Source of the DNA: an uncultured Clostridia bacterium
Lineage (GTDB): Bacteria > Bacillota > Clostridia > TANB77 > CAG-508
Direction of reading: 5' to 3'
DNA: 33,777 bases
NCBI GenBank assembly: GCA_947629805.1
Contig: CANRFE010000001.1
Coordinates: forward strand, 1 to 33,777
How positions within the stretch are numbered: the first letter of the stretch is position 1; each line of letters opens with the position of its first letter. Under the pieces are notes generated by a model. That model was not told the DNA's origin, did no database searches, and worked only from the letters and a program-made list of their open reading frames with translations. Shown here one piece after another: positions 1,854-31,203 of the stretch. Both the position numbers and the translations under genes were made by a program.

Positions 1854-3545
1854 ATGAACGTAAAAAAATTCTTCACTCCTTTTGTTTGGCAACCAAAAAA
1901 AATTTATGATTTTTCCATTGCACAAACAGAGGAAACTACAACAGAACAACAAGAAGAAAATACAAATTCTTTAGCAAACAAAAGAATGGTACTTCCTAAG
2001 CTTTCTAGTAATTTAGAATATATCAAAGCAAGATTTAACACTCTTATTAATAGTGATATTATTCTTCGTGAATTTTCCATTCTTGCTCACAACAAACGTT
2101 ATTCTGCATTTCTTTTGTTTATTGACGGCATGGTAGATTCCAATTTAATTAACGATTTTATCTTAAAACCTTTAATGCTTAGAAACCCTGCCAATACGTT
2201 TGAAGAGGAAAAAAATAGAATTCTTTCAAAATCGGTAAAAAACCATGTTACCATAAGAAAAGTAAAAAAATTTGATTTAATAGAATATATTTCTAGCAAG
2301 CTACTTCCTCAAAATACTATTTCGGAGGAAAAAGAAATGGATGCTCTTATTTCTGGAGTAAATTCCGGCAATTGTGCTTTATTTATTGATACTTTGGAAG
2401 TTGCTTTTGACATTGAAGTAAAAGGTTTTAAGCAAAGAAGTATAGATACCCCTAATAACGAAATTATTATTAAAGGACCACAAGAAGCCTTTGTAGAAAA
2501 TATTCGAACCAATACTTCCTTGCTTCGTAGAATTATAAACAATGAACAATTAATTATGGAAAATATCGAAATTGGTAAAGTAACCAAAACCAAATGTGCT
2601 CTATGTTACATGGAAAATATTACAAATAGTGATTTAGTAGCAGAAGTGAAATATCGTTTAAATAATCTTGCTATTGATTCTTTATTCTCTTCTGGGCAAC
2701 TAGAACAGCTCATTATAGATGACAATCAAATTGGTGTACCAGAAATTTTATCCACAGAAAGGCCTGACAAAACGGCCAAACACTTATTACAAGGACGTGT
2801 TGTTGTATTAGTAAATGGTTCTCCTTATTCTTTAATTATGCCTGCTACTTTCATTGACTTCATGTCTTCTCCAGAAGATACCAATTTGAAAACTTATTTT
2901 GCTAATTTTCTAAGAACGCTTCGTTTTTTAGCTTCTCTTATTACTTTACTACTTCCTGGGTTTTACGTTGCAGTTACTAGTTTTCATCAAGAAATTTTAC
3001 CAACCGAATTGCTTTATTCCATTTTAAGTGCAAGAGAAACGGTTCCTTTTCCTGTTATTTTTGAAATTTTCATTATGGAGGTTTCTTTTGAACTTATTCG
3101 AGAAGCAGGTCTTAGAGTCCCTTCTCCCATTGGACCCACTATTGGTATTGTAGGTGCTTTAGTATTAGGACAAGCTGCCGTTAGTGCGAATATTGTAAGT
3201 CCTATTCTCATTATCATTATTGCCTTAACTGGTATTGCCTCCTTTGCTATTCCAGACTTTTCGTTTGGTTTTCATTTACGATTTTTCCGTTTTGGCTTTG
3301 TACTACTTGGTTATATTGCTGGCTTTTTAGGAATTTCCATTGGACTTTTTGTATATTTGTCCATTCTTTGTAATATCAAATCTTTTGGTGTTCCTTTTAT
3401 GGCTCCTTTTGCCCCTGCTACCAATAGTAAGGGAAATGGATATTTTCTTCCTCCTATTTGGAAGCAAGAATATAGAGCTACTTATGTAGCTCCTAAAAAG
3501 GAAAAGGCACAAGAGCCTATTAGTATGAAATGGAAATTCAAATAA
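1854..3545 (+). CDS. Spore germination protein, GerA-family A subunit
   Basis: 563-aa ORF with the typical GerAA/GerKA layout: soluble N-terminal part (LRRIINNEQL, GRVVVLVNGSPYSLIMPATF) and a C-terminal polytopic membrane region. RBS-like GGATGGATG upstream. Confidence 0.9.
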   Translation: MNVKKFFTPFVWQPKKIYDFSIAQTEETTTEQQEENTNSLANKRMVLPKLSSNLEYIKARFNTLINSDIILREFSILAHNKRYSAFLLFIDGMVDSNLINDFILKPLMLRNPANTFEEEKNRILSKSVKNHVTIRKVKKFDLIEYISSKLLPQNTISEEKEMDALISGVNSGNCALFIDTLEVAFDIEVKGFKQRSIDTPNNEIIIKGPQEAFVENIRTNTSLLRRIINNEQLIMENIEIGKVTKTKCALCYMENITNSDLVAEVKYRLNNLAIDSLFSSGQLEQLIIDDNQIGVPEILSTERPDKTAKHLLQGRVVVLVNGSPYSLIMPATFIDFMSSPEDTNLKTYFANFLRTLRFLASLITLLLPGFYVAVTSFHQEILPTELLYSILSARETVPFPVIFEIFIMEVSFELIREAGLRVPSPIGPTIGIVGALVLGQAAVSANIVSPILIIIIALTGIASFAIPDFSFGFHLRFFRFGFVLLGYIAGFLGISIGLFVYLSILCNIKSFGVPFMAPFAPATNSKGNGYFLPPIWKQEYRATYVAPKKEKAQEPISMKWKFK

Positions 3546-3609: not shown

Positions 3610-4708
3610 ATGAATCATTCAAGAATTGGTACATTAGAAGCAATTTGTCTTATTTTATCTGTTATTATCATTCGTACCGTATTATCCTTACCAAAAAGCA
3701 TTTTAGCACTTACAAACTCTGCTAGTATTTTAAACCTTCTTTATGTTGGTTTTATTGTACTTGTTTTAGTTTATTGGATCTATCGTCTTTTTCAAAAATT
3801 TCCTGGGATGGATATTATTGATGTAGCAGAAGTAGTAGGACGGAAATCTTTTTAAGAAAATAATAGGCTTAATCTTTATTTTTTATTTTATTGTAAGTTC
3901 TAGTATTTTTCTTAGAAACTTTTGCGAATGTCTAAGAATTGTATATTACCCCTCCACTAGCATTTTATTTTTTATTTTATTTTTTATTATCGCCCTTTGT
4001 GCTACGAATTACTTATCTTTTAATGCTAGTTTAAAAGCAAACTTAATAATTACTCCTATTGCCCTTGGTAGTATTGTCTTTTTATTTGTTGCCAATATCA
4101 GCCATTTTTCTCCTCAAAGAATTTTTCCCCTTCTTGGAAATGGCATAATGCAAACTTTTGTAATGGGACTTGGGAACATTTCTTCTTTTAGTGGAATTGT
4201 CTTTTTATATTTTCTTCCCCCTTTATTAAAAGAGCCACAAAAATTCAAAAAAATTGCTATTACTTCTGTTATTTTATCGGTCCTTTACTTAATCATAACC
4301 GTTTCTATTATTTTATTTATTTTCTCCTATTTTGTACAAACCGATGAAGTAATGCCTTTATACTCTGCTGCCACTTATATTGAATTCGGAAGCTTTTTCC
4401 AAAGGCTAGAATCCGTCTTTTTATTAATATGGATGTTAGTTCTTGCTTGTTACTTAAGTATTATTAGCAAATTTTCCATTCATATTTTTCGTAAAATAAC
4501 GAATATTAAAGACTTTAAGCCTACCATTTATCCTATTGGCCTTTGCATTTTAGCAGTCTCCCTTTTGCCAAAAAATTATGCAACGGCAAAATTTTATGAA
4601 ACTTCTATTTATCCTTACTTAATGATTGGAATTGTTTGCATTATGAGTTTTCTTATTTTGCTTTTTGCCTCTTTGAAAAGGAAAAGAAAAGTAGGTGATG
4701 TAAATTGA
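3610..4708 (+). pseudogene. GerAB-family (APC-type permease-like) germinant receptor B subunit, split by a 1-nt frameshift
   Basis: The 81-aa ORF (3610-3855) and the 186-aa ORF (4148-4708) are both polytopic membrane sequence. I translated the frame of the second ORF by hand and it is open back to about 3845 (NLFKKIIGLIFIFYF...GNGIMQTF). A 1-nt change in the T5 run at 3849-3853 joins them into a roughly 365-aa protein, the normal B-subunit size. Confidence 0.8.
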
Positions 4709-7438: not shown

Positions 7439-8083
7439 TTACACAACAAATAGTAGAAAACTCAAACTTAGTAATGGTACTGTAAGGTTATCGGTTCCTT
7501 TTATAGAAAATGCTTCTACTGCTGTTAGTAAGATGCTACCTAGCAATGCCTTTATATACCAAAAAGGACTATTACTCCAAATAAGATAAATAGCAATGGT
7601 TACCAAAGAAACAAGAAACATTGTAGTAGAACCAGCTAAAGATTTCTGCGTATCTGCTATTTTATATTTTGGACTATGAATTGCTTTTCCAAATACAGCA
7701 GCTAGTCCATCTCCATAAGCCATAAGCAAAATAGGAACTAAGCCTAAAATTGGTTGTTGTAAAATACCAAATGTTACAATCGTAATAAGGAGTAAAGAAA
7801 GTGCATAATAGACTGTTCCCAAGCCTTCGTTTTCCTTTCTCTCCATTACTTTAATTAAATCTTTTTTATAAGACACATAATTAATCACAACAAAAGTGGC
7901 TGGTACAAACATAGCAAACCATACATTGTCAAAAAAATACATCGCAAGGAACCACCAATTTCCTAAAGCAATATGAATAAATTTTCTGCTTGCTTCTTTG
8001 CCTTTTTTTTCAAACAATTTTGCTATTACAATAACCACTACAATTGCTAAATAAGATATTCCAATTCCCAACCAATTCTTCAT
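7439..8083 (-). CDS. Polytopic membrane protein, dolichol/phytol/polyprenol-kinase-like (CTP_transf_1 superfamily)
   Basis: 214 aa, multiple TM helices. SRKFIHI and AYGDGLAAVFGK motifs resemble the CTP-dependent polyprenol kinase branch. Assigned from motif memory only. Confidence 0.55.
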   Translation of the reverse strand: MKNWLGIGISYLAIVVVIVIAKLFEKKGKEASRKFIHIALGNWWFLAMYFFDNVWFAMFVPATFVVINYVSYKKDLIKVMERKENEGLGTVYYALSLLLITIVTFGILQQPILGLVPILLMAYGDGLAAVFGKAIHSPKYKIADTQKSLAGSTTMFLVSLVTIAIYLIWSNSPFWYIKALLGSILLTAVEAFSIKGTDNLTVPLLSLSFLLFVV

Positions 8084-8841: not shown

Positions 8842-10573
8842 CTATTTTTTCAAGATTATTTCTTTATCCTTTTTTATTTTTTCTATTTCTTCAAACCTTT
8901 TTATTTTTGCTGTTGTAGTTTTAATCATGGGTTCTTCTGTTATAATGATATTTTTTATATGTTGATAGTTTGGTAAATTTTGATTGATATTTTTAATGTC
9001 TTTCCATATTTTTTCCTTTCTTTCTTGCTCTGCTACCTGATTTTCTTGCATCCATTCTGGATTATACACAATCTTGGCAGATATTATAAAATCATCTTCT
9101 TTTGGCATACCAAATACCATACTCTCTTCTACATATGGCAAATGATTAAGAATCTCTTCTAATTCTTCTGGGTAAATATTCTTTCCATTTTTCAAGACAA
9201 TGACATTTTTCTTTCTTCCTGTAATAAAAATATACCCATCTTTATCTTGGTAACCCAAATCGCCTGTATAAAACCAACCATCTTTTAATACTTCTTTGGT
9301 TGCCCTATCTTCTTCGTAATAACCAAGCATTACATTAGGGCCTTTTGCAATAATTTCTCCAATTCCTTCTTCATTAGGAGAATCGATTTTTACTTCCACA
9401 TTTGCTAAAGGATACCCAATTGAACCATAACGAATATACTTTTCATTTTCCGCTGTAAGAACAGGTGAAGTTTCTGTTAGTCCATAACCTTGCACGGTTA
9501 AAATTCCAAAATCATTAAGTCCTTTTGCTACGTTTTTATCAAGAGCAGAAGCACCACTTACAACAAAACGAAGATTTCCTCCTAATGGTTCTATAATCTT
9601 GTGAAATACTTTTCTTCGTATATCGATTCCTAATTTCAATAAAAAGTTGGTAATGGGAATAATTCTGTCAATTAATTTTGCTTTTCCTTGTTTTTCTATT
9701 TCTTTTCTAATTTTTTTATACATCGTTTCTAATAATAAAGGAACACATACAAAAATAGATACTTTATACTCTTTTAAATTGCTCTGAATATGACGAATTC
9801 CATCACAAAATACATTGGTTGCACCGTTTACTTAAGAAAAAGAAAAGACCTGTACTTCCAAAGGTATGGTGAAATGGTAAAAAAGCTAAATTAACATCTG
9901 TATCATAAACTTTCTCTGCCATACTTAAAGCATAAATATTAGAAGCAATGTTCTTATGCGAAAGCATAACTGCTTTTGAAGTAGAGGTAGTACCAGAAGT
10001 AAAGAGTATTACTTGCATTTCTTCTTCGTGAATGTCTGCTTTTATAAAGTCTTCATAACCTTGCTGCAATAATTCTTTGCCTTCTTTTATTAAGGTTGGT
10101 AAACTTTGAAATTCTTTTTGTTCCTCCATGCAAATAAAATGCTTTATTTTTGTTTCCTTTTTTTCCTGTATTTGTTTCATAATACTAGCATATTTTTCAT
10201 CAAAAATAATAGCATCTGCATTGCTTCTTTGTAACAAAGATAAAATTTCATTTTCTGGGAGCCCTTTGTCTAATGGAATGACAATACCCGTTCCATTTAT
10301 AATGGCAAAATAGCTTAGCACCCACTCATAACGGTTTGGGCTAATAATTGCAATACGTTTATTCTTCAGTCCTCGTTTCATCAAACTAGAACCTAATGCA
10401 TTTATTTCTATTCCAAATTGTTCATACGTTACAACCTTATATTTTTCTTTCTCTTCCTGTTTATTTTTTATAATAAAAGCTTTATGGTCTGCATATTTTT
10501 TTATTGCATTTTGCATAATCTCCCTTAAATCCTTAAATTCTTCTGCTTGGTAAAGCATATTTTTCGATTTCAT
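8842..10573 (-). pseudogene. Long-chain acyl-CoA synthetase (AMP-binding family), split by a 1-nt frameshift
   Basis: N-terminal ORF (9803-10573) carries the AMP motif ILFTSGTTSTSKAVMLSH. C-terminal ORF (8842-9723) carries GYGLTETSP and YTGDLGY...ITGRKKNVIVLKNGKNIYPEELE. The C-terminal frame is open up to 9832 and reads NGATNVFCDGIRHIQSNLKEYKVSIFVCVPLLLETMYKK. Removing one A from the minus-strand agtAAAcgg (plus-strand 9827-9829) fuses the two parts. Confidence 0.85.
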
Positions 10574-10723
10574 AAAAATTTCTCCTTACTTTTTTATTCT
10601 TTATTTCTATTTTTTAATAAAAAAAAGACCATACTGTTTAGGTATCGCCTTTTGCATTTTTATTGTAACATAGTTCTGGTTTTCTTTCTATAAAACTGAC
10701 TACTTATTCCAAAGAATAAATTT

Positions 10724-11254
10724 TTATACATCATAAAAATAGGTTGCTTCTAAATCTGCTTCATGCATGTATAAAGCAAGGGGATATTTTTTATAAGCTT
10801 GTCCAATTGTACCATAAAATTCTTTTGGCTCTGTAAAGCCCATGTGCCAACGGATAGCATAACGTTCTTCTGGTGTCAATTTAATAAATTCTGATAACAT
10901 CATAACAGATTTTTCCCCATGTCCATAAGGAATGGAATCTTCTACTGTATAATACGGTACTTTTTCCCATACGCCTTGTTCATTTTTTGCATTACGATAA
11001 TCTACCTTATAATAATTTACTTTACAAATATCATGTAATAAGGCAATAATTTTAACAGAATCCGAATCTTCGGTTTTCGTTTTCAAAATTTCATATACCT
11101 TCGTACTATGTTCTAATAAACCACCTTTATAGCATCCATGAAAACGTGTACTAGCAGGCGCTTCAAAAAAATCAGAGTGATTTAAGAATTCAATTAACTG
11201 ATCCATCCCTTCTCTTTTAACTTGCTTTAAGATATTGATAAATTCTTCCTTCAT
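10724..11254 (-). CDS. HD-domain phosphohydrolase
   Basis: 176 aa. FHGCYKGGLLEHS ... ALLHDICK (H...HD signature). Confidence 0.8.
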   Translation of the reverse strand: MKEEFINILKQVKREGMDQLIEFLNHSDFFEAPASTRFHGCYKGGLLEHSTKVYEILKTKTEDSDSVKIIALLHDICKVNYYKVDYRNAKNEQGVWEKVPYYTVEDSIPYGHGEKSVMMLSEFIKLTPEERYAIRWHMGFTEPKEFYGTIGQAYKKYPLALYMHEADLEATYFYDV

Positions 11255-12092
11255 TTCTTTCTCCTTTCAAAATAGATTCTAATTCATTTTTTAAGTTTTT
11301 ATCAAATTTGTAATAATATGGCTCAATATCTGGGAAAAAGCTATCAAAATAAATAATATTTCCGTTTTTATCAATAGCCTTCAAATTGGGAAATGTGCGA
11401 ATAATTTTTCGATTAGAAAAAAAGGTATTAATGATATTGGCTAATTTTTCATTACTATAGTATTTTTCATATAAGTTTTCCATTTTTTCTTTAGCATTTA
11501 CTTGTATGTCATGTTCATGAATCATGCGAAGATAAAACATATTAATTGCAAAGCCTGTTAAAATAAAATCTACAAATAAAAATAAGATTACCATTGTAGT
11601 CATAATTTTAAGTGTTTTAAGAGAAAACTTTTTTTGTATCCATGCTATTAGCTTATCTATTCTAGGATTTGCATACGAAATCAAATAAATTGCTAAAAAC
11701 CCCCAAAACAAAGAAAAAAATACGCAAATTCTGCCATGAATATTAAGAGGCATATTAGAATAATCCCACCAAATAACATGAAAAATTTTTTCTCCCAAAA
11801 AACTAATGATATATTCTGTAACAGAGCCAATCAGAAAACCACCCCAAAATAGAGTGTTATTGTTTTTCTTAAAATACTGTAAAAAAACAATCATAATAAC
11901 AGCACCTAAGCCATAAATAGAACAAAATGGACCATATAAAAAGCTTTGTCTACTTTCCCACGTTCCTTTTGTCATCATACTATATAAGGTTTCAATTACA
12001 TAACCTAACACACTATAAATAATAAAATATGCCAAAATTCTCCATATACTAAAACCTAAAATGGTCCATTTCTTTTTCGTATTTTCTTCCAT
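11217..12092 (-). CDS. Polytopic membrane protein, PF06541-like (putative ABC-transporter type IV / CmpB-like)
   Basis: 291 aa. LGYVIETLY and YGPFCSIYGLGAV motifs. Its 3' end overlaps the HD gene start by 38 nt. Confidence 0.65.
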   Translation of the reverse strand: MEENTKKKWTILGFSIWRILAYFIIYSVLGYVIETLYSMMTKGTWESRQSFLYGPFCSIYGLGAVIMIVFLQYFKKNNNTLFWGGFLIGSVTEYIISFLGEKIFHVIWWDYSNMPLNIHGRICVFFSLFWGFLAIYLISYANPRIDKLIAWIQKKFSLKTLKIMTTMVILFLFVDFILTGFAINMFYLRMIHEHDIQVNAKEKMENLYEKYYSNEKLANIINTFFSNRKIIRTFPNLKAIDKNGNIIYFDSFFPDIEPYYYKFDKNLKNELESILKGERNEGRIYQYLKAS

Positions 12093-12134
12093 TTCTTTTT
12101 TCCTTTCTATGCTTACATAAAATCTTCTTAGAAG

Positions 12135-12440
12135 TTAAAAGAAAAAGCCATAGTAAATTCCTACTAGTATTTCAAAAATAAGAATAGCAGGAAAACCTAT
12201 TACAAACCTCGGCTTCTGCGTTTTGTGTCGAAAAATATACATGCCAGCTATTCCGCCAATTCCACCACCTAATAAAACCAGAAAAAACAAAGTAGATTCC
12301 TTTATTCTCCATTTTGCATATTTTGCTTTTCTTTTATCTAACCACATTGCAAAAAAAGTTAGTAGGTTTATCATAATAAAATAAATAAGGATATTGGGAA
12401 CTGTAAAAATTTTGCTAAAGTCTATTCTTGTTTCAAACAT
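12135..12440 (-). CDS. DUF1294-family small membrane protein
   Basis: 101 aa. WLDKRKAKYAKWRIKESTL ... GGGIGGIAGMYIFRHKTQKPRF. Confidence 0.8.
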   Translation of the reverse strand: MFETRIDFSKIFTVPNILIYFIMINLLTFFAMWLDKRKAKYAKWRIKESTLFFLVLLGGGIGGIAGMYIFRHKTQKPRFVIGFPAILIFEILVGIYYGFFF

Positions 12441-12616: not shown

Positions 12617-13324
12617 ATGTACGAAAGCTATAAATTTTTTCCTATGGAAGAACGACAATGGAATCAATCTTTTTTAGATGCCACAAAACAAGGAGATAAG
12701 AAAAAAGTATTCGAATTATTAAGGCAAGCTGGTGAAGTTTACCTAGACGAATACTATATTGACCATTCTATTTTTAAGTTAAACCAAACGAATATTTCTT
12801 CAGAAAAGAAAGAAAAACTATTAGCCGACCTAAAAAAATGTAAAATTGTAAAAGAAGTAGCAGAACAAAAAGACACGCTAGCAATTAAAACTTCTTCTAC
12901 TCCTATTATGGTATCAAAGTTGTCCAATCTTATTCCTGGCATTGAAAATATTACACCTTCAAAACAAAAAGACAATATTGTAAATAAAAGCGTTTATCGT
13001 TCTGAATATATTTCTCAAATGTTAAGCTTTCCCAATAGTGTTGTTACAGGCTATACGTATGGCATTGCAGATAAAGCCAAAAGTATAAATACTTGGGTAG
13101 AATTCAAAAATCATAAAAATCAAGAATTTGTTGTATTTCCTGATACAAATACGGTATATAATAAAGAAGGATTTTACTTCTTAAAACATGCAGAACCCAT
13201 AAAAAAAGTAGCTAGTGATGATTTAAGAGGAAAATCTTCTGTTGGCAAAGGTTCTTCTTATAGTGAACTTGGTATGCCAGCTGTAGATGTCGACATAGAA
13301 ATTGATATGAATGATGAAAGATAA
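12617..13324 (+). CDS. Hypothetical soluble protein, no recognisable domain
   Basis: 235-aa ORF with RBS GAAGGTGA 8 nt upstream, its own promoter and terminator. No signal peptide or TM helix. Acidic C-terminus. Confidence 0.6.
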   Translation: MYESYKFFPMEERQWNQSFLDATKQGDKKKVFELLRQAGEVYLDEYYIDHSIFKLNQTNISSEKKEKLLADLKKCKIVKEVAEQKDTLAIKTSSTPIMVSKLSNLIPGIENITPSKQKDNIVNKSVYRSEYISQMLSFPNSVVTGYTYGIADKAKSINTWVEFKNHKNQEFVVFPDTNTVYNKEGFYFLKHAEPIKKVASDDLRGKSSVGKGSSYSELGMPAVDVDIEIDMNDER

Positions 13325-18270: not shown

Positions 18271-20370
18271 TTAATCTGTGTTTTCTTCGCTATCAAAAAA
18301 GCCCAAGATTTGTGTAGTTCCTTGTTTTCTTCTTCTCGGCATTATAGTTTCTTGCTCTTCTTGTGGTTTTGCACGCATAGTTGCTGAAGTTAATAATTGT
18401 TTTCTTTGAACTAGTGGTTCTTCTATTTTTTCTCTTTTTACCACTGTTTCTGTTGGCACTCTTCTCTCTATTGTCACACTTCTATCGGTTGTTACTCTTC
18501 TAGGAGTGGTTGATACATTGTTTAGTAAATGTAGTTTTTTCTCCAATAGCTTGTCCATTTGCGCTTCTAATGTGCTTGCATTTATTTTAGAAGCTTCTTC
18601 TAATTTTTGTATTTTTGCTACTAATTTTTTGTTCTCTAATTGCATTTTTTGTATAGTATCTTCATATTGTTTTTTACTTTCTTCTAATTGTTGATATTTC
18701 AATAGCATACTACCTTGTGCTTTTGCATTTGCTTGTTCTAATTGTTTCCATTTTTTGCTTATTTGCTCTTGTAAAGACTGCATTGCGGTATGCATTTCTT
18801 GTGCATTTTGTTGTATTTGTTTTTGGATTGCATCTTCTTTCTTTTCCCATTCTATTTGTATTTGTCCTGTTGCTTGCTCAGAAATTTCTTTTAACGCATC
18901 TATTTCCTTTTGTATTTGTTCTTCCTTTTCTGCCATGCTTTGCTTAAGTTTGTTAAGCCCATCTTCCATTTCTTCTTCTCTATTTATTTGTTCTTCTCGT
19001 TGCTCTTCTATAGCCTCATCAATATCTTTTATTTCTTTTTCATTTTGTTCTTGTAAGGACTCTATCTCTTTTCCTAATTTTTGTTGTTCTCTCTCGAAAG
19101 CTTCTTGTATTTGCTTTATTTTTTCTTCTTGGCTTTTTTCAAAATCCTGTCTTATTTTCTTTTCTTCGTCTACCTTTTGTTGGACCTCTTCTTGCATTTC
19201 TTGTTTCTTTGCTTCTAGTTCTTCTTGCACTTGTTGTGACATTTTGCTTAATTCTTCTTGTAATTGTTGTGTTTTTTCTTTTTCTCTTTTAATAATAGTA
19301 GTTTCTATTTGCTTTTGTCTATCCTGTATTGCTTCTATGCCTTGTTGTAATTTTTTATTCTGTTTTTCTTCAAACTCTTGTCTTTTTATTTCAATTTCTT
19401 CCTGCTTTTCTTGAATCTCTTCTTGTAATTGTACCATTCCATCATTAAATTGCTTAATCAATCGGTCAGTTTCTTGTTGATTTTCCGTTGTAAAATTACT
19501 TACTATACTTTCTTGTTGATTTTTGCTTTGCTCTATATCATTTTTCATTTCTAAAAGAGTTTGATTAAACTCTTCTATTAAATTTGCTATTTGCTTTGTA
19601 GCTTTTTTATCTATTTTTTCAATTTGTGTTGCATTTTCTTTTTGATTGCTTTCTATTTCTTTTTTAAACAAAACAGATTGTTCTTGTATATCTGATACCG
19701 TTTTTTCCAAATCTTTACATTGTTGTAAGATGTCTTCTTGTTTTTCTTTTGCTTGCGTATCTAATCTTTGCACAATTTCTTGCATACTATTTACTTTCTT
19801 TTGTGTTTCTGCATTATCTTGATCTTGTGCATCTTGCATTTCAATAATTTTATCTTCAAAGTCACGATTTCTAATTTGTGCTTCTTCTCTAAATTCATTA
19901 AAACCATCTTCTAATTGTTTTTGTACTTTCACAGATTGATTTTCAATTTGTGTTTCTAATTCTTTTTTACTTTCTAAAATTTTTACAAGAAGTCTTTTTA
20001 ATTTTTGCACAGGAGTTAATTTCTTTACTTTTACAGTTAATTGTTCAAATTGTTTTTGAAATTCTTTAAATTGTTTTTCGTTTTCTAAACGTATTTTTTC
20101 TGCTACTTCATCTACTCTATTTTCTGTTTGTTCTTTTCCTTCTTTTTCTAATTTTTTCTGCTTTTCTACTATCTTTTCAATTTCTTTCTTACTTGCTTGG
20201 TATAGATCCATAATTTTTTTACATAGTAGTCGTAAAGTTTCCATTTCTTTTTCATATTTATCGTCTTGAATATAAGAATCTAATTTTTGCATTAAATCTC
20301 CCTGTGATTTTTCAAATGCATTATGAAGTTCTTTTATTTTTTCATTTAATATTTCATTATTTTCATCCAT
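18271..20370 (-). CDS. 699-aa E/K/Q-rich coiled-coil protein of unknown function
   Basis: ORF with RBS AAGGAGA, 23 nt downstream of the rseP stop and 63 nt upstream of the polC start. About 600 aa of heptad-like E/K/Q/L/I sequence. A non-coiled basic C-terminal tail of about 90 aa ends in TQILGFFDSEENTD. No TM helix or signal peptide. Confidence 0.8.
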   Translation of the reverse strand: MDENNEILNEKIKELHNAFEKSQGDLMQKLDSYIQDDKYEKEMETLRLLCKKIMDLYQASKKEIEKIVEKQKKLEKEGKEQTENRVDEVAEKIRLENEKQFKEFQKQFEQLTVKVKKLTPVQKLKRLLVKILESKKELETQIENQSVKVQKQLEDGFNEFREEAQIRNRDFEDKIIEMQDAQDQDNAETQKKVNSMQEIVQRLDTQAKEKQEDILQQCKDLEKTVSDIQEQSVLFKKEIESNQKENATQIEKIDKKATKQIANLIEEFNQTLLEMKNDIEQSKNQQESIVSNFTTENQQETDRLIKQFNDGMVQLQEEIQEKQEEIEIKRQEFEEKQNKKLQQGIEAIQDRQKQIETTIIKREKEKTQQLQEELSKMSQQVQEELEAKKQEMQEEVQQKVDEEKKIRQDFEKSQEEKIKQIQEAFEREQQKLGKEIESLQEQNEKEIKDIDEAIEEQREEQINREEEMEDGLNKLKQSMAEKEEQIQKEIDALKEISEQATGQIQIEWEKKEDAIQKQIQQNAQEMHTAMQSLQEQISKKWKQLEQANAKAQGSMLLKYQQLEESKKQYEDTIQKMQLENKKLVAKIQKLEEASKINASTLEAQMDKLLEKKLHLLNNVSTTPRRVTTDRSVTIERRVPTETVVKREKIEEPLVQRKQLLTSATMRAKPQEEQETIMPRRRKQGTTQILGFFDSEENTD

Positions 20371-24668: not shown

Positions 24669-25316
24669 ATGAATCAAATATTAGGAAATCAAATAGCAAA
24701 TTCTACTTCTAATTTATTACCAACTTCTAAAAAATTTAAGTTGATTTTTTGGATTGCTTTTTTCGTTGCTCTCTTTTGTTTTATTTTTTACTTTTTTATG
24801 CAATACCATGCATGGCAAAAAGAGAAAATTTCTCAAAACCTAGCGAATTCTTTTCAAATTCGTAATTTATATGCTACCCAAAATACCTATACTTCGCAAA
24901 GAACCTCTTTGTATTCTGAAAATACGGAGCCTTTTGTGATTGGTTTATTAAAAATTGATAAAATTGATTTACTATATCCTATTTTATCAACCACGTCCGA
25001 AGAACTCTTAAAAATTTCTCCTTGTCGTTTTTATGGGCCTATGCCAAACGAAGTTGGGAATTTATGTATTGCAGGACATAATTATGCAAATCAAACACAT
25101 TTTGGAAAATTAAGTGTTTTAAGAGCAGGGGACTCTTTTCAAATTTACGACTTAGCTAGCATTCCTGTTGAATATGTAATTTACCAAACTTCTGAAGTTT
25201 CTGCTAGTGACACTTCTTGTTTGAACCAAAATACCAATGGAAAAAGAGAAGCTACTTTAATTACCTGTAATACTATAAAAGGCACTAGAGTTGTAATAAA
25301 GGCAAAGGAAAAATAA
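24669..25316 (+). CDS. Sortase-family transpeptidase (small, class-D-like)
   Basis: 215 aa. N-terminal TM anchor, catalytic His in CIAGHNY, TLITCNT (TLxTC Cys) and downstream TRVVIKA Arg. Confidence 0.85.
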   Translation: MNQILGNQIANSTSNLLPTSKKFKLIFWIAFFVALFCFIFYFFMQYHAWQKEKISQNLANSFQIRNLYATQNTYTSQRTSLYSENTEPFVIGLLKIDKIDLLYPILSTTSEELLKISPCRFYGPMPNEVGNLCIAGHNYANQTHFGKLSVLRAGDSFQIYDLASIPVEYVIYQTSEVSASDTSCLNQNTNGKREATLITCNTIKGTRVVIKAKEK

Positions 25317-25367
25317 GCTTTCTAAAGTTTTTATATAGAAGTATTTTTTCTTTCCTTATGCCAAAAC

Positions 25368-25394
25368 AAAAAGAAGACTTGTTGTCTTCTTTTT
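25368..25394. terminator. Bidirectional terminator between the convergent sortase and pilin-like genes
   Basis: aaaaagaagac ttgtt gtcttcttttt: a 7-bp G/C-containing core extended by A/T pairs, with an A-tract on one side and a T-tract on the other. Confidence 0.6.
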
Positions 25395-25419
25395 ATACCT
25401 ATATAAATTTTGCTTGTTA

Positions 25420-26697
25420 TCAAGATGCAGAACTACATATATAAAGTGCGGGCCTGAACGTGGTTTTATAGTAGCTACCGGTCGCACTGCTGTTGCCGCC
25501 GGCGCTAGTGCAGTAATCGGTATTGAAGGCACTACCTCCCCTAGAAACACAAGGGAAGACGAAAGAATCATCCGCAAACATACAAGTTTCAGTCGTCCAT
25601 TCCTCACAATTACTTGACATATCATAGATATTACATACTTTATCTGTTGTATCCGAATCGCCATCATTTTTTCTTTCTCCTGTATTTCCTAAACTGCTAT
25701 TTCTTGATTTTTGATTTGCATAATTACTATTTCCATTTGAATATGTCTCTATAAACACTATTGCTGTATCCCATGCATAACTATTCACTAAATCACTAGT
25801 AAAATTATCATTTTCTCCATACATTGCTTTAGCTGCAGTAGCTGCATTTTGTTGGGTTATATTATTCCATAACTGTCCTAGCGTAGTTGGTGGAGTATAT
25901 GAATCTTCAAAGCTTGTTGATGGTTTACTATATGGCTTTATTCCATCTTTGTAACTTGCCTCATATCTTGCTAGATAATATCCATGATTCGTTGTTGCAC
26001 TTGTCTTAAATGCATTGATGTCTGTCGCTATTGTATTCCCTTTGCCACTTACTTCATGTTCTTCTTTTGTTTCTTCGATACAGTCAATATCAATACCATA
26101 GCTTATTACTGTTCCTTCTGTTGTTACATTTTCTGGTACTCCTGTAGAAGCATTAAATGTACACCTTTGTAATTGAATAGGAGTTGATCCACCTTCTCTA
26201 TTTTTTATATCTCCTACTGGTATCCATACAAATTGGTTTCCTTCTTCATCTGCTATTACGATTCCATCTTGTACTGTTGGTGTTCCTGTGTTAGTTGAAT
26301 ATTTATATTCTACATCATCTGTTCCATTTGGTACTATATGAAATCCTGCTGGTATTACTACGGGATTACCATATTCATCATGTACCGGTATATTTTTATT
26401 AAATGTATGTTGTGGTTGCTTTACAGCTTCTGCTGTTGTGGTAGGCTCTTTTACTGGCTCTTCTGGTGTAGTTCCTGAGCTTCCTCCTTGCCCTATCTTA
26501 TCGATTTCGGCTAATAAAGCATTAAATGCTGTCTGTTCATCTTGTTCTGCTTTTGCATAATCCTCTCTTGCCTGCAATGCTCTTCCAAAGAGTCCATTTT
26601 CTCCTAATACCAAATTAATACTAATTCCTGCCAAAATAATTAAAATAATAATGGTAATGATTAGCGCTACTAATGTTATACCTTTGTTGTTTCTCAT
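25420..26697 (-). CDS. Type-IV-pilin-like N-terminal anchor protein with C-terminal FGE-sulfatase (SUMF1) / C-type-lectin-like domain
   Basis: 425 aa. N-terminus MRNNKG|ITLVALIITIIILIILAG resembles a class III (prepilin) signal but has Ala at +5. The C-terminal part has FGE-fold landmarks: YYLARYEAS, NSYAWDTA, NIYDMSSNCEEWTTE, VSRGGS and FRPA. RBS AAGGAGG upstream. Confidence 0.75.
   Translation of the reverse strand: MRNNKGITLVALIITIIILIILAGISINLVLGENGLFGRALQAREDYAKAEQDEQTAFNALLAEIDKIGQGGSSGTTPEEPVKEPTTTAEAVKQPQHTFNKNIPVHDEYGNPVVIPAGFHIVPNGTDDVEYKYSTNTGTPTVQDGIVIADEEGNQFVWIPVGDIKNREGGSTPIQLQRCTFNASTGVPENVTTEGTVISYGIDIDCIEETKEEHEVSGKGNTIATDINAFKTSATTNHGYYLARYEASYKDGIKPYSKPSTSFEDSYTPPTTLGQLWNNITQQNAATAAKAMYGENDNFTSDLVNSYAWDTAIVFIETYSNGNSNYANQKSRNSSLGNTGERKNDGDSDTTDKVCNIYDMSSNCEEWTTETCMFADDSFVFPCVSRGGSAFNTDYCTSAGGNSSATGSYYKTTFRPALYICSSAS
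25456..25530 (-). other. Candidate DGR variable-region-like segment (NNC-codon cluster)
   Basis: 25 consecutive codons, of which 16 are NNC: gcc ttc aat acc gat tac tgc act agc gcc ggc ggc aac agc agt gcg acc ggt agc tac tat aaa acc acg ttc. The rest of the gene uses mainly A/T-ending codons. The run lies between RGGS and FRP at the end of the FGE/CLec-like fold. Confidence 0.35.
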
Positions 26698-26860
26698 GTT
26701 TCTTTTCCTCCTTATTTTTCCTTAGTTTCTCCTCGTTTTGTTCTTTTATTCTTAATGTATTATGTTTATAAGTTATTATTATTTTATATTAAAACATATA
26801 CCTTATTTTTTGTAAACTAGTTAGTTCAAAATGTAATACAATTGTAATATTTGGGGATTG

Positions 26861-26903
26861 CAAAAAACCTTCTTATAACATTTTATAATGCTATAAGAAG
26901 GTT
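26861..26903 (-). terminator. Terminator after the LPQTG-protein gene
   Basis: 12-bp stem aaccttcttata / tataagaaggtt (26866-26877 / 26892-26903). On the minus-strand transcript it is followed by UUUU. Confidence 0.5.
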
Positions 26904-26949
26904 TCTCTTTTTTATAAATTTACTTTCTATATATTTTTCTTATATAGAT

Positions 26950-27303
26950 TTATTTAATATTATACTCTCTTACTTTTTTATAAGCATAACCTGCTACTAT
27001 AATTGCTACAATAATTAATAAGAATATAGCATAATCACTAGCATCTCCTGTTTGAGGTAAATCTGTATTTTGATAAGTACTTACTTGTGTATTCGTTGTT
27101 GGTGCTGCCTGATTAATTGTTGGTTGCGTAGTTTGTTGTTCATTGTTTACAGGTGTTTCTGTATTTGTTGTTGGAAGTGTAACATTAATTCCAATTGGTC
27201 CATCAGATCCTCCTGTAGCTAATACTTTAGAAGATAGTACTAACAACATAACAAACATCATCATAATAACTAAAACTTCTTTTTTCATACTCATTTTTTT
27301 CAT
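26950..27303 (-). CDS. Small LPXTG (LPQTG) cell-wall-anchored protein
   Basis: 117 aa. Signal peptide (...SSKVLA|TGG), T/N/Q/P-rich segment of about 55 aa, LPQTG, hydrophobic stretch AIFLLIIVAIIVAGYAY and basic tail KKVREYNIK. RBS AAGGAGA upstream. Confidence 0.8.
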   Translation of the reverse strand: MKKMSMKKEVLVIMMMFVMLLVLSSKVLATGGSDGPIGINVTLPTTNTETPVNNEQQTTQPTINQAAPTTNTQVSTYQNTDLPQTGDASDYAIFLLIIVAIIVAGYAYKKVREYNIK

Positions 27304-29840: not shown

Positions 29841-31188
29841 TTACATGAATTTTTTCAAATCTTTTGGGTTTAAATTCTTCATCATGTTTTTCATTCCTTT
29901 TGTATCTTGCATTTTCTTCATCATTTTTTGTGTCATTTCAAAAGATTTCATAAACTGATTAATCTGTTGGACGCTTGTTCCACTTCCTTTTGCAATACGC
30001 ATTCTTCTACTTGCATTAAGCAGACGTGGATTTCTCCTTTCTTGTATGGTCATAGAACAAATCATTGCTTCTATTTTTACGAATTCTTTATCCTCTACTT
30101 TTAAGTCTTTTAGGTTTGCCATACCAGGAAGCATTTTTAAGAGAGAAGAAAAAGATCCCATTTTTTTTACTTGCCTTAATTGTGTTAAATAATCTTCTAA
30201 GTCAAATTCTTTTTTCTTTAATTGTTTTTCTAGTTTTTCTGCCTCTTCTATATCAAACGATTCTTCTGCTTTTTCGATAATGGATAAAACGTCTCCCATT
30301 CCTAAAATACGAGAAGCCATTCGATCTGGATGAAATTCTTCTATATCACTTAACTTTTCCCCAGTTGCTGCAAATTTAATTGGTCTATTCGTTATTTTTT
30401 TAACGGATAAGGCAGCACCACCACGAGTATCACCATCTAATTTGGTTAATACAACTCCATCAATGCCCAAATTTTGATTAAAGCTTTCTGCTACATTTAC
30501 TGCATCTTGTCCTGTCATGGAGTCTACTACTAATAAAATTTCATGTGGTTTCACATTTGCCTTTACATTTTTTAATTCTTGCATTAGTTCTTCGTCAATA
30601 TGAAGTCTTCCTGCTGTATCTAAAATAACTACATCATTTAATTTGCTTATGGCAACGTTCATAGCTTGCTTTGCAATATGCACTACATCTTTGGATTGTT
30701 CATTACTATAAACGGGAATGTTTAACTGTGAACCAACCACTTGTAATTGTTTAATTGCTGCTGGCCTATAAATATCACATGCCACAAGTAATGGTTTTTT
30801 GCCTTGCTTACGAAGTAAGTTTGCAAGTTTTCCTGCTGTAGTTGTTTTTCCGTGAACCTTGTAGTCCTACTAACATAATAACAGTGGGAGGATTGGAAGT
30901 AAAATTAATTTTGCTGTTTTCCCCGCCTAGAAGTTCAATTAATTCATCTTTTACAATTTTAATAACTTGTTGTCCTGGTGTTAAAGATTTTAATACATCT
31001 TGGCCTAGAGCTTTTTCTTGCACACTTGCTATAAAATCTTTCACAATTTTATAGTTCACATCCGCTTCTAACATAGCAAGTTTTACTTCTCTTAACATCT
31101 CTTTTAAGTCTGTTTCCGTAATTCTTGCTTTTCCTCTTAGCTTTCTTGTAATTTCTTGAAGCTTTGAAGATAAACCCTCAAATGCCAT
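29841..31188 (-). pseudogene. ffh: Signal recognition particle protein Ffh, interrupted by a 1-nt insertion in the P-loop codons (possible sequencing error)
   Basis: The N-terminal ORF ends ...VIMLVGLQGS then out-of-frame RKNNYSRKTCKLTS*. The next frame reads GKTTTAGKLANLLRKQGKKPLLVACDIYRPAAIKQL ... DTAGRL ... TKLDGD ... and a Met-rich M domain. Deleting one base of the minus-strand tcaCgga (plus-strand about 30852) restores GLQGSGKTTT. The ATG at 31188 (MAFEGLS) is preferred. Confidence 0.9.
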
Positions 31189-31203
31189 TTGCATTTCCTC
31201 CTT

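Follow-up and report, generated by a model that had tools for sequence, protein, structure and literature searches.

A probable diversity-generating retroelement variable region in an orphan surface-protein gene of an uncultured Clostridia bacterium

A 33,777-nt (33.8 kb) stretch of DNA from an uncultured Clostridia bacterium (GTDB CAG-508; assembly GCA_947629805.1, contig CANRFE010000001.1, positions 1 to 33,777), hereafter the window, carries a gene for a 425-aa surface protein (25420..26697, minus strand; supported by the open reading frame (ORF) list, a homologue alignment and an AlphaFold2 (AF2) model) that ends in a short patch of codons unlike the rest of the gene. A first-pass annotation had interpreted this patch as the variable region (VR) of a diversity-generating retroelement (DGR), while recording no reverse transcriptase (RT), Avd or template repeat (TR) in the window, which raises the question of whether the patch was written by a DGR at all and, if so, whether it is still being rewritten from elsewhere. 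The first part of the question can be answered with some confidence, as the patch is very probably a genuine DGR-written VR in a non-adjacent (orphan) target gene, based on its codon signature, the fold of the protein, a family of verified DGR targets to which it belongs and the DNA homology of the patch to the TRs of those targets.

Codon signature of the patch and homology to template repeats

Codons 390-414 of the target gene (25456..25530, minus strand) form a cluster in which 16 of 25 codons end in C, compared with 29 of the 400 codons in the remainder of the gene, confirming the NNC run that had been noticed in the first-pass annotation. The binomial tail for such a run is 6e-13, or about 2.5e-10 once multiplied by the 401 possible 25-codon windows. 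C occupies 55% of the third positions in the patch and A 6%, compared with a genome-wide share of C-ending codons of only 7%, which corresponds to an NNY codon design in which third positions are spared and A is almost absent from them. The bias survives within synonymous codon sets, such that amino-acid composition does not explain it: for Gly, Ala, Thr, Val and Pro, A-ending codons account for 1/14 in the patch versus 100/141 elsewhere (p=4e-6) and C-ending codons for 8/14 versus 8/141 (p=4e-6), while for Asn, Asp, Tyr, Phe, His and Cys the C-ending codons account for 6/9 versus 9/98 (p=2e-4). The run is bracketed by the motifs RGGS (residues 386-389) and FRP (residues 414-416), as had been proposed, and GC content rises locally to 0.45 against about 0.30-0.35. 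Both this local GC rise and the overlapping ORFs that had been ascribed to it (25356..25667, minus strand; 25414..25617, plus strand) are present in the GC profile and the ORF list.

Homologues of the protein were recovered in more than 7,500 clusters at 90% identity, mainly from Clostridia metagenome-assembled genomes and gut metagenomes, with the source name ‘type II secretion system protein’ attached to some members; the window protein itself is a singleton cluster represented by one contig. In the family alignment (A1), the body of the protein is kept up to ...NIYDMASNCxEWTTE...PCVxRGG, the approximately 25 residues after RGG differ in nearly every sequence, and the alignment closes with a conserved SFRPxLY end. 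The third-position shift is also a property of the family. Third-position A drops from about 0.5 in the body to 0.06-0.13 in the patch of four family genes checked by hand, and among 42 metagenome family genes the means move from 0.55 to 0.15 for A and from 0.05 to 0.32 for C, with at least a two-fold fall in third-position A in 35 of the 42.

Self-comparison of 80 family loci from metagenome contigs, searched for repeats whose mismatches concentrate on one base, identified TR/VR pairs beside family members (labels L245-L339 refer to contigs carrying family genes or matching RTs). The TR and VR differ at 29 positions over 157 nt in L283 (86% at TR adenines), at 19 over 85 nt in L290 (79%) and at 15 over 116 nt in L292 (100%). 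Among contigs recovered with the cassette RT, the pairs in L335 and L338 have 24 and 25 mismatches (88% and 92% at A, respectively). In L336, a single TR accompanies the VRs of two tandem family genes, with 28 and 22 mismatches (96% and 95% at adenines), alongside an intact RT of 336 aa. For complete targets, family TR/VR pairs are 116-157 nt long. Cassette neighbours received the Pfam calls MutS_I-like, bAvd and RVT_1, and the cassette RT has the motif IGNYTSQ...YMDD. A search based on this RT returned 3,693 clusters, mostly full length, and four contigs from that search, with L335, L336 and L338 among them, carry intact cassettes in the order MutS-like (MSL) gene, bAvd, RT, TR and a small ORF resembling oligonucleotide-binding (OB)-fold or single-stranded DNA-binding (SSB) proteins. 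With a family that is hypervariable at this position, members that adjoin cassettes with adenine-specific TR/VR mismatches and a patch that is homologous at the DNA level to those TRs, the DGR interpretation of the first-pass annotation is upheld.

The window patch aligns without gaps over 114 nt (25442..25555, minus strand; blastn) to the TRs of L283 and L336. The placement of the VR in the first-pass annotation was therefore borne out, while the extent given there (25440-25545) was too short, as TR/VR homology secures about 25442..25555 and the true VR probably reaches upstream to about 25593, just after EWTTE. Relative to the TR of L283 (TR283), which belongs to another organism, the patch is 66.7% identical with 38 mismatches, of which 23 occur among the 47 A positions and 15 among the 67 non-A positions (Fisher p=0.0045). 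Where the TR has AAY the patch has NNY, mostly with the same third base, and 25 of 37 third positions are common to the patch and TR283. The scaffold between the variable codons is kept (AGG GGx GGx ... TAC/TGC ACx AGC ... GCG ACx ... AGC ... ACG TTY AGG CCC), including fixed codons common to the patch and the TRs (GCG, ACG, AGC twice and AGG CCC) that are unusual for this genome, where GCG and ACG are rare. The mismatch rate at non-A positions (22%) equals the backbone divergence of housekeeping DNA between the window and L283 (21-25%), as would be seen if the genome of the window had a TR orthologous to TR283.

The 3' end of the patch also has the form of a VR. The junction TTCAGGCCCGCACTTTA (25442..25458, minus strand) matches TTTAGGCCCACACTTTA, which ends the VRs of L283 and L336, whereas the TRs read ...CACACTCTAATAT; the window end ...AGGCCCGCACTTTA has the VR-end form (...CACACTTTA), including ...CACTTTA, and not the TR form. 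In direct comparison of the sequences, this VR-end versus TR-end difference corresponds to the distinction between an element like IMH (initiation of mutagenic homing) and one like IMH*. The TR of L336 (TR336) belongs to the same TR class and was considered as the template of the window VR, but was rejected because 18 of its 41 mismatches to the patch over the 114 nt fall at non-A positions (23 at A), and L334 and L335 were rejected as the source of the TR of the window because they carry a different TR class. We infer that the window copy was templated by a TR of the same class as TR283 in its own genome, for which the search pattern is AGGGGAGGWARTRMCWWCAATAMCRATWAMTRCACWAGCRMMRGMRRCAACARCARTGCGACMRRTAGCWACWAWAAAAMMACGTTMAGGCCC with the 3' end ...CACTCTAATAT.

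Fold and architecture of the target protein

From its N-terminus, the target consists of a hydrophobic, prepilin-like helix, a linker rich in Thr and Pro, a beta-rich region and, at the C-terminal end, a domain resembling the formylglycine-generating enzyme (FGE)-sulfatase and C-type lectin (CLec) fold, which ends in the VR. The AF2 model, built on 27 homologues, has a pLDDT of 83 and a pTM of 0.77, with a pLDDT of 86-95 across the patch, and has a long helix at the N-terminus followed by a disordered linker of Thr and Pro and then a globular body. The FGE/CLec-like domain occupies approximately 25438..26010 (minus strand; ~residues 230-420), as defined by the high-confidence part of the model and by Foldseek. 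The best Foldseek matches in the PDB were Mtd (1yu1 and 1yu2, ranked top), FGE, CarF, PvdO, TvpA (2y3c) and TaqVP, with borderline E-values (1e-3 to 1e-2) and probabilities of 0.60-1.00 for the five best-ranked and 0.44 for TaqVP. All of these best matches are FGE/CLec-fold proteins, and three are solved DGR variable proteins, from Bordetella phage (Mtd), Treponema (TvpA) and Thermus (TaqVP), and against a viral library the best matches were gut-phage ‘tail collar fiber’ proteins.

When solved relatives were sought from sequence alone, only weak matches emerged, such that the fold assignment relies on the AF2 model. The A1 profile reached 5aoh and 1y4j (CarF, SUMF2) at E=0.2-1 over profile positions 339-394, and the Pfam FGE-sulfatase family (PF03781) had no match to the target even at E=1, so that the likeness to FGE-sulfatase appears to be one of predicted fold, with no sequence-level membership of the Pfam family. 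At this level, the model and its structural matches agree with the first-pass placement of the patch at the C-terminal end of an FGE/CLec-like fold.

The first-pass description of the protein as pilin-like is more weakly supported. The N-terminal segment (26611..26697, minus strand; MRNNKG followed by ITLVALIITIIILIILAGISI) resembles a class III (prepilin) signal with Gly at -1 and Ala in place of Glu at +5, and the features of such a signal, a short basic leader ending in Gly followed by a hydrophobic stretch of ~20 aa, are present and kept across the family. On the other side, the Pfam N_methyl match (E=0.0044, 17 bits) falls under the 21.2 cut-off, and Ala replaces Glu at +5 in nearly all family members of alignment A1. 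Pfam matched no other part of the target protein, an NCBIfam search of it returned no match, the A1 profile matched pilin N-termini in the PDB weakly (E=0.012), and no prepilin peptidase or pilus assembly genes occur among the genes of the window. Some tip-located minor pseudopilins, such as GspK, likewise lack Glu5, which makes Ala at +5 compatible with a pilin-like role, and membership of the type IV pilins is not established.

Taken with the cassettes found beside family members, a DGR origin suggests the following sequence of events. An RNA of the AAY-codon-rich TR would be reverse-transcribed by the DGR RT together with bAvd and, in this lineage, also a MutS-like protein. Adenines would be copied as any base and the cDNA would replace the 3' end of the target gene (mutagenic retrohoming), turning AAC and AAT codons into NNC and NNT and leaving non-adenine scaffold codons unchanged. 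The product would be an N-terminally anchored, pilin-like surface protein that shows its varied residues on the FGE/CLec fold as a ligand-binding face, and the cassette, which is not within the 33.8 kb contig, would lie elsewhere in the genome or have been lost.

Alternative origins, activity and genomic setting of the probable variable region

Several results weigh against the patch being a DGR-written VR. As the first-pass annotation had stated, the 33.8 kb window holds no cassette: an ungapped scan tolerating mismatches at A in the copy found no TR-like copy, the ORF and Pfam survey found no RT or Avd, and a search for the motif GTATTAGATATTAAAGRRRTTTATYCC, which follows the TR in family cassettes, was also empty. 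No GC-rich hairpin follows the window VR (60 nt folded, z=+0.9). The adenine pattern was scored only on TRs of other organisms and is enriched at A without being exclusive to it, as would be predicted for a true TR that is an orthologue with about 78% identity. Of the 36 family loci for which 3 kb or more of downstream flank was available, only 3 have a cassette, and the RT is frameshifted or deleted in L283, L290, L291, L292 and L315, indicating that decay of such cassettes is common. Finally, in five of seven informative multi-member 90% clusters of other family members the VR is identical in all members and the rest of the protein varies. With regard to the hairpin, a clear GC-rich example after the VR was seen in L290 only among the family loci.

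These results bear most directly on the possibility that the patch is an ancient fossil, with a VR written in a remote ancestor, no templating in this lineage and the binding loop inherited since then under ordinary mutation and selection. The window without a cassette, the frequency of cassette decay in the clade, the many orphan copies that are invariant between strains and the family patches that grade from C-rich to T/A-rich third positions, with the look of a decay series, are all in keeping with this explanation. It is nonetheless improbable, because an old neutral NNC patch should have drifted to NNT and NNA while C still fills 55% and A only 6% of the third positions of the window patch, and because divergence from TR283 at non-A positions is no higher than that of the backbone, to which homogenisation by an orthologous TR is at least an equal fit.

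Origins that dispense with reverse transcription fare worse. Recombination of the patch from a GC-richer donor, or a mosaic gene end, might account for a local GC of 0.45-0.57 versus about 0.32 in the gene body and would suit a gene that lies whole within a 1.64 kb insert relative to L283, but the excess is phase-specific (third positions), with positions 1 and 2 randomised, and is confined to the hypervariable patch, the remainder of the inserted segment being normal in composition. Moreover, dozens of family members in equally AT-rich genomes repeat the pattern, and the patch is homologous to same-clade TRs that are themselves A-rich, leaving a donor origin very improbable. Chance, or a codon-usage quirk such as a 3'-end constraint from translation or mRNA structure within an ordinary hotspot of diversifying selection, has in its favour that diversifying selection is common in surface lectin-like loops and that richness in Tyr, Ser, Asn, Asp, Gly and Thr alone lifts the NNY count. 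The synonymous tests (p=4e-6, 4e-6 and 2e-4) and a corrected run probability of about 1e-10 speak against it, and the homology to real TRs would be left unexplained, such that the likelihood of this origin is close to negligible.

Accepting a DGR origin, the present state of the window VR is less clear-cut. It is slightly more likely to be frozen after loss or decay of its cassette than to be an active remote target. The window patch sits at the ‘fresh’ end of the family range, like the cassette-adjacent VRs of L283, L290 and L291, and remote targets more than 100 kb away are known for cellular DGRs (Wu et al. 2018, PMC5758913). Among family members, the VR of the L291-type target is different in nearly every member of a 195-member cluster, demonstrating that the clustering method is able to detect diversification, and the L290 type, in which the RT is deleted, has two VR haplotypes only. 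Two alleles of an orphan homologue, whose locus carries no cassette within 10 kb, are 8 nt apart, with 7 of the differences within 66 nt of the VR; these seven differences are all at codon positions 1 or 2 and all amino-acid-changing, in alleles with flanks 2% apart. A broader arrangement, in which one chromosomal MSL-bAvd-RT-TR-OB cassette per genome serves dispersed prepilin-like lectin genes in trans in gut Clostridia and the window copy is a freshly written remote target, is advanced only tentatively and is on balance unlikely.

Matches to candidate TRs were also sought beyond the window. A ‘VR base or A’ pattern run against the genome and viral contigs returned 240 stretches, all of them poly-A or poly-T runs. 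The predicted TR of the orphan homologue, with variable positions set to A, had no match in viral and metagenome contigs, and the TR predicted for the window VR was, like the motif GTATTAGATATTAAAGRRRTTTATYCC, without a match in IMG/VR viral contigs. From the lack of viral-contig matches for the TR and spacer, the lineage appears cellular. GenBank phages had no tblastn match to the last 153 aa of the protein. An IMG/VR prophage (L253) carries a family member of ~30% identity (10019-11194) between endolysin and integrase genes, in the manner of a lysogenic-conversion gene; neither a TR nor an RT lies within 10 kb of it, and its C-terminus (GGNYKWGSWRSASCRWDTYLGYDVYGFRVALYL) looks VR-like.

Variation within the family extends to both the VRs and the gene bodies. 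The VR patches of L254-L333 range from a third-position C of 0.4-0.6, as beside cassettes, down to 0.08-0.15 with A up to 0.44, with L279, L301 and L272 as examples of T-rich or A-enriched patches, and this spread may represent a decay series after the loss of templating. Between the L245 and L249 strains, flanks are 2.0% different over 12 kb while the family gene (10001-11170) differs outside the VR by 1 nt in 1,104 nt, and is thus much more conserved than its surroundings.

The cassettes themselves share several components. No RT gene beside a family target was intact in the first metagenome set: L283 contains one additional C (CATCGGAGG) and stops early (1887-2742), L291 has a frameshift in an A-run (2500-3376), L292 (2816-3857) and L315 (4152-4556) a common frameshift (AGACGGAATG), and L290 an internal deletion that joins the RT N-terminus straight to the TR (11676-12188). 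An ORF2 fragment of the L292 type (P0203) represents 375 member sequences, from which the L292-type frameshift seems fixed in a common species. The small OB-fold/SSB-like ORF (83-94 aa) is conserved in the cassettes with weak Pfam matches to SSB and tRNA_anti-codon, and is found directly 3' of the TR in L283 (3198-3482), L290 (12342-12593), L338 (11561-11836) and L334 (2568-2825), and between bAvd and RT in L292 (2557-2838). A conserved element, GTATTAGATATTAAAGRRRTTTATYCC, occurs after a short hairpin 3' of the TR in L283 (~3090-3125), L290 (~12215-12250) and L292 (~4035-4070), as well as in L334 and L335, and probably corresponds to the priming spacer of the DGR RNA. In L336 (4536-8958), the bodies of the two target genes are identical, and the genes are separated by one for an IS200/IS605-type Y1 transposase.

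Synteny with L283 places the target gene within an insertion. The window and L283 have a common gene order (ylxM-ffh-rpsP-KH-rimM-trmD-rplS-LPXTG / sortase-pyrH-frr), but in L283 the family gene and cassette are directly upstream of ylxM, at a distance of 5 kb, and folA/thyA occupy the corresponding place in the window. A 1.64 kb segment of the window comprising the target gene with its own upstream and downstream spacers (25311..26950) is absent from L283, with the blastn synteny blocks stopping at 26951 and 25310, and the LPXTG and sortase genes that abut in L283 are separated in the window by the inserted target gene. A functional tie of the target to these adjoining genes was considered and rejected, since the same pair is adjacent without a family gene in L283 and the position of the target by the sortase therefore appears incidental. 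L338 (12167-14158) and L339, where a sortase gene and a SpaA-type pilin gene follow the cassette, provide the second instance of a family gene in the vicinity of genes for sortase-dependent pili. The family proteins of the window and L283 are ~38% identical, indicating paralogues, and their VR/TR regions are as similar as the genomic backbone. Near the ends of the segment is an imperfect 19-nt direct repeat (25328-25346 and 26937-26955; 84% identical) that could be a trace of insertion or a chance occurrence in AT-rich DNA.

The 3' end of the target gene differs slightly from that of its relatives. The protein ends in LYICSSAS*, where most family members terminate directly after LY(M/I/L/V), and comparison of the window (TATATATG) with L283 (CTT TAT ATG TAG) reveals a 2-nt TA gain in the window, by which the frame bypasses the usual stop and the protein becomes six residues longer. 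Downstream, a stem-loop (AAAAGAAGAC-AACAA-GTCTTCTTTT) followed by a T run (25366..25393, minus strand) can be read from the sequence and is likely the intrinsic terminator of the target gene; it is not a GC-rich DGR-type hairpin, and it was omitted by a simple terminator scan because its stem has too few G-C pairs for the rule of the scan.

Elsewhere in the window, several genes are interrupted. The gene for the signal recognition particle GTPase ffh (29841-31194, minus strand) is divided into two ORFs (30808..31194 and 29841..30785) by a frameshift inside the P-loop, the first ending in ...LVGLQGSRKNNYSRKTCKLTS* where the L283 orthologue reads LVGLQGSGKTTTAGKL, and as ffh is essential, the break suggests an assembly indel error. 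A gene for an AMP-binding enzyme (8842-10573, minus strand) is likewise split (ORFs 9803..10573 and 8842..9723), and a spore-germination permease is represented by a fragment (4148-4708, plus strand) covering profile positions 188-315 only, such that the contig may contain several indel errors or the genome may be decaying. Three ORFs, at 18271-20370 (minus strand), 7439-8083 (minus strand) and 12617-13324 (plus strand), encode proteins of 699, 214 and 235 aa with no Pfam match.

Relation to known systems and implications for the family

Among known systems, the TvpA system of Treponema, with its scattered targets, is closest. As in the window family, the DGR of Treponema denticola is cellular and acts on an FGE/CLec-fold protein with a C-terminal VR, with related targets far from the RT (PMC5758913), though TvpA is a spirochaete lipoprotein and the window family has a prepilin-like N-terminal helix and belongs to AT-rich gut Clostridia. 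The Mtd/Brt/Avd system of Bordetella phage BPP-1 shares the adenine-specific mutagenesis of AAY codons, the C-terminal VR on a CLec fold, the combination of Avd, RT and TR, and the IMH/IMH*-type junctions. Mtd, however, is a phage tail-fibre protein encoded beside its cassette, whereas the gene of the window lies on the chromosome amid housekeeping genes and the 33.8 kb contig holds no cassette, and the family cassettes differ from that of BPP-1 in having an extra MutS-like gene, a small OB-fold ORF and the TR after the RT.

The MutS_I-like and bAvd genes upstream of the RT in family cassettes are shared with MSL-containing DGRs (e.g., Legionella), from which the family differs in host clade and target architecture. 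The combination of MSL and avd has been described among DGR classes, and the accessory genes reported there are Avd, HRDC, MSL and CH1, a set that does not include an SSB/OB-like ORF (Wu et al. 2018, PMC5758913). A further likeness is to the Bacteroides DGRs that act on type V pilus tip adhesins, in which gut commensals also vary an adhesive pilus-associated surface protein (bioRxiv 10.1101/2024.11.15.621889). The Bacteroides case concerns type V pili in Bacteroidota, in contrast to the type IV prepilin-like N-terminus without Glu5 in Clostridia, for which pilus incorporation is hypothetical.

The mechanism is that of a standard, well-known DGR and the finding extends existing knowledge. No description of a target architecture of prepilin-like N-terminus, linker and CLec domain, or of the scale of the cassette-less family, was found in a literature search with incomplete coverage, and large DGR catalogues may already contain such cassettes. 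Large DGR surveys state that they cannot see targets far from any cassette (Roux et al. 2021, PMC8144416).

For annotation, proteins of a family labelled ‘hypothetical’ or ‘type II secretion system protein’ become DGR target proteins and the patch becomes a VR. The family is a very large group of gut-Clostridia surface lectin-like proteins in which the binding site is, or was, programmably diversified, with most copies far from cassettes. The contrast between genomic codon bias and the NNC/NNT codons imposed by a TR might serve as a simple clock for the ongoing rewriting of orphan VRs. If rewriting in trans were true, Gram-positive commensals would have type IV-like filaments with these proteins as their variable tips, and the thousands of cassette-less copies would form a series from fresh to fossil, in which the decay of third positions from C to T or A would date the last retrohoming.

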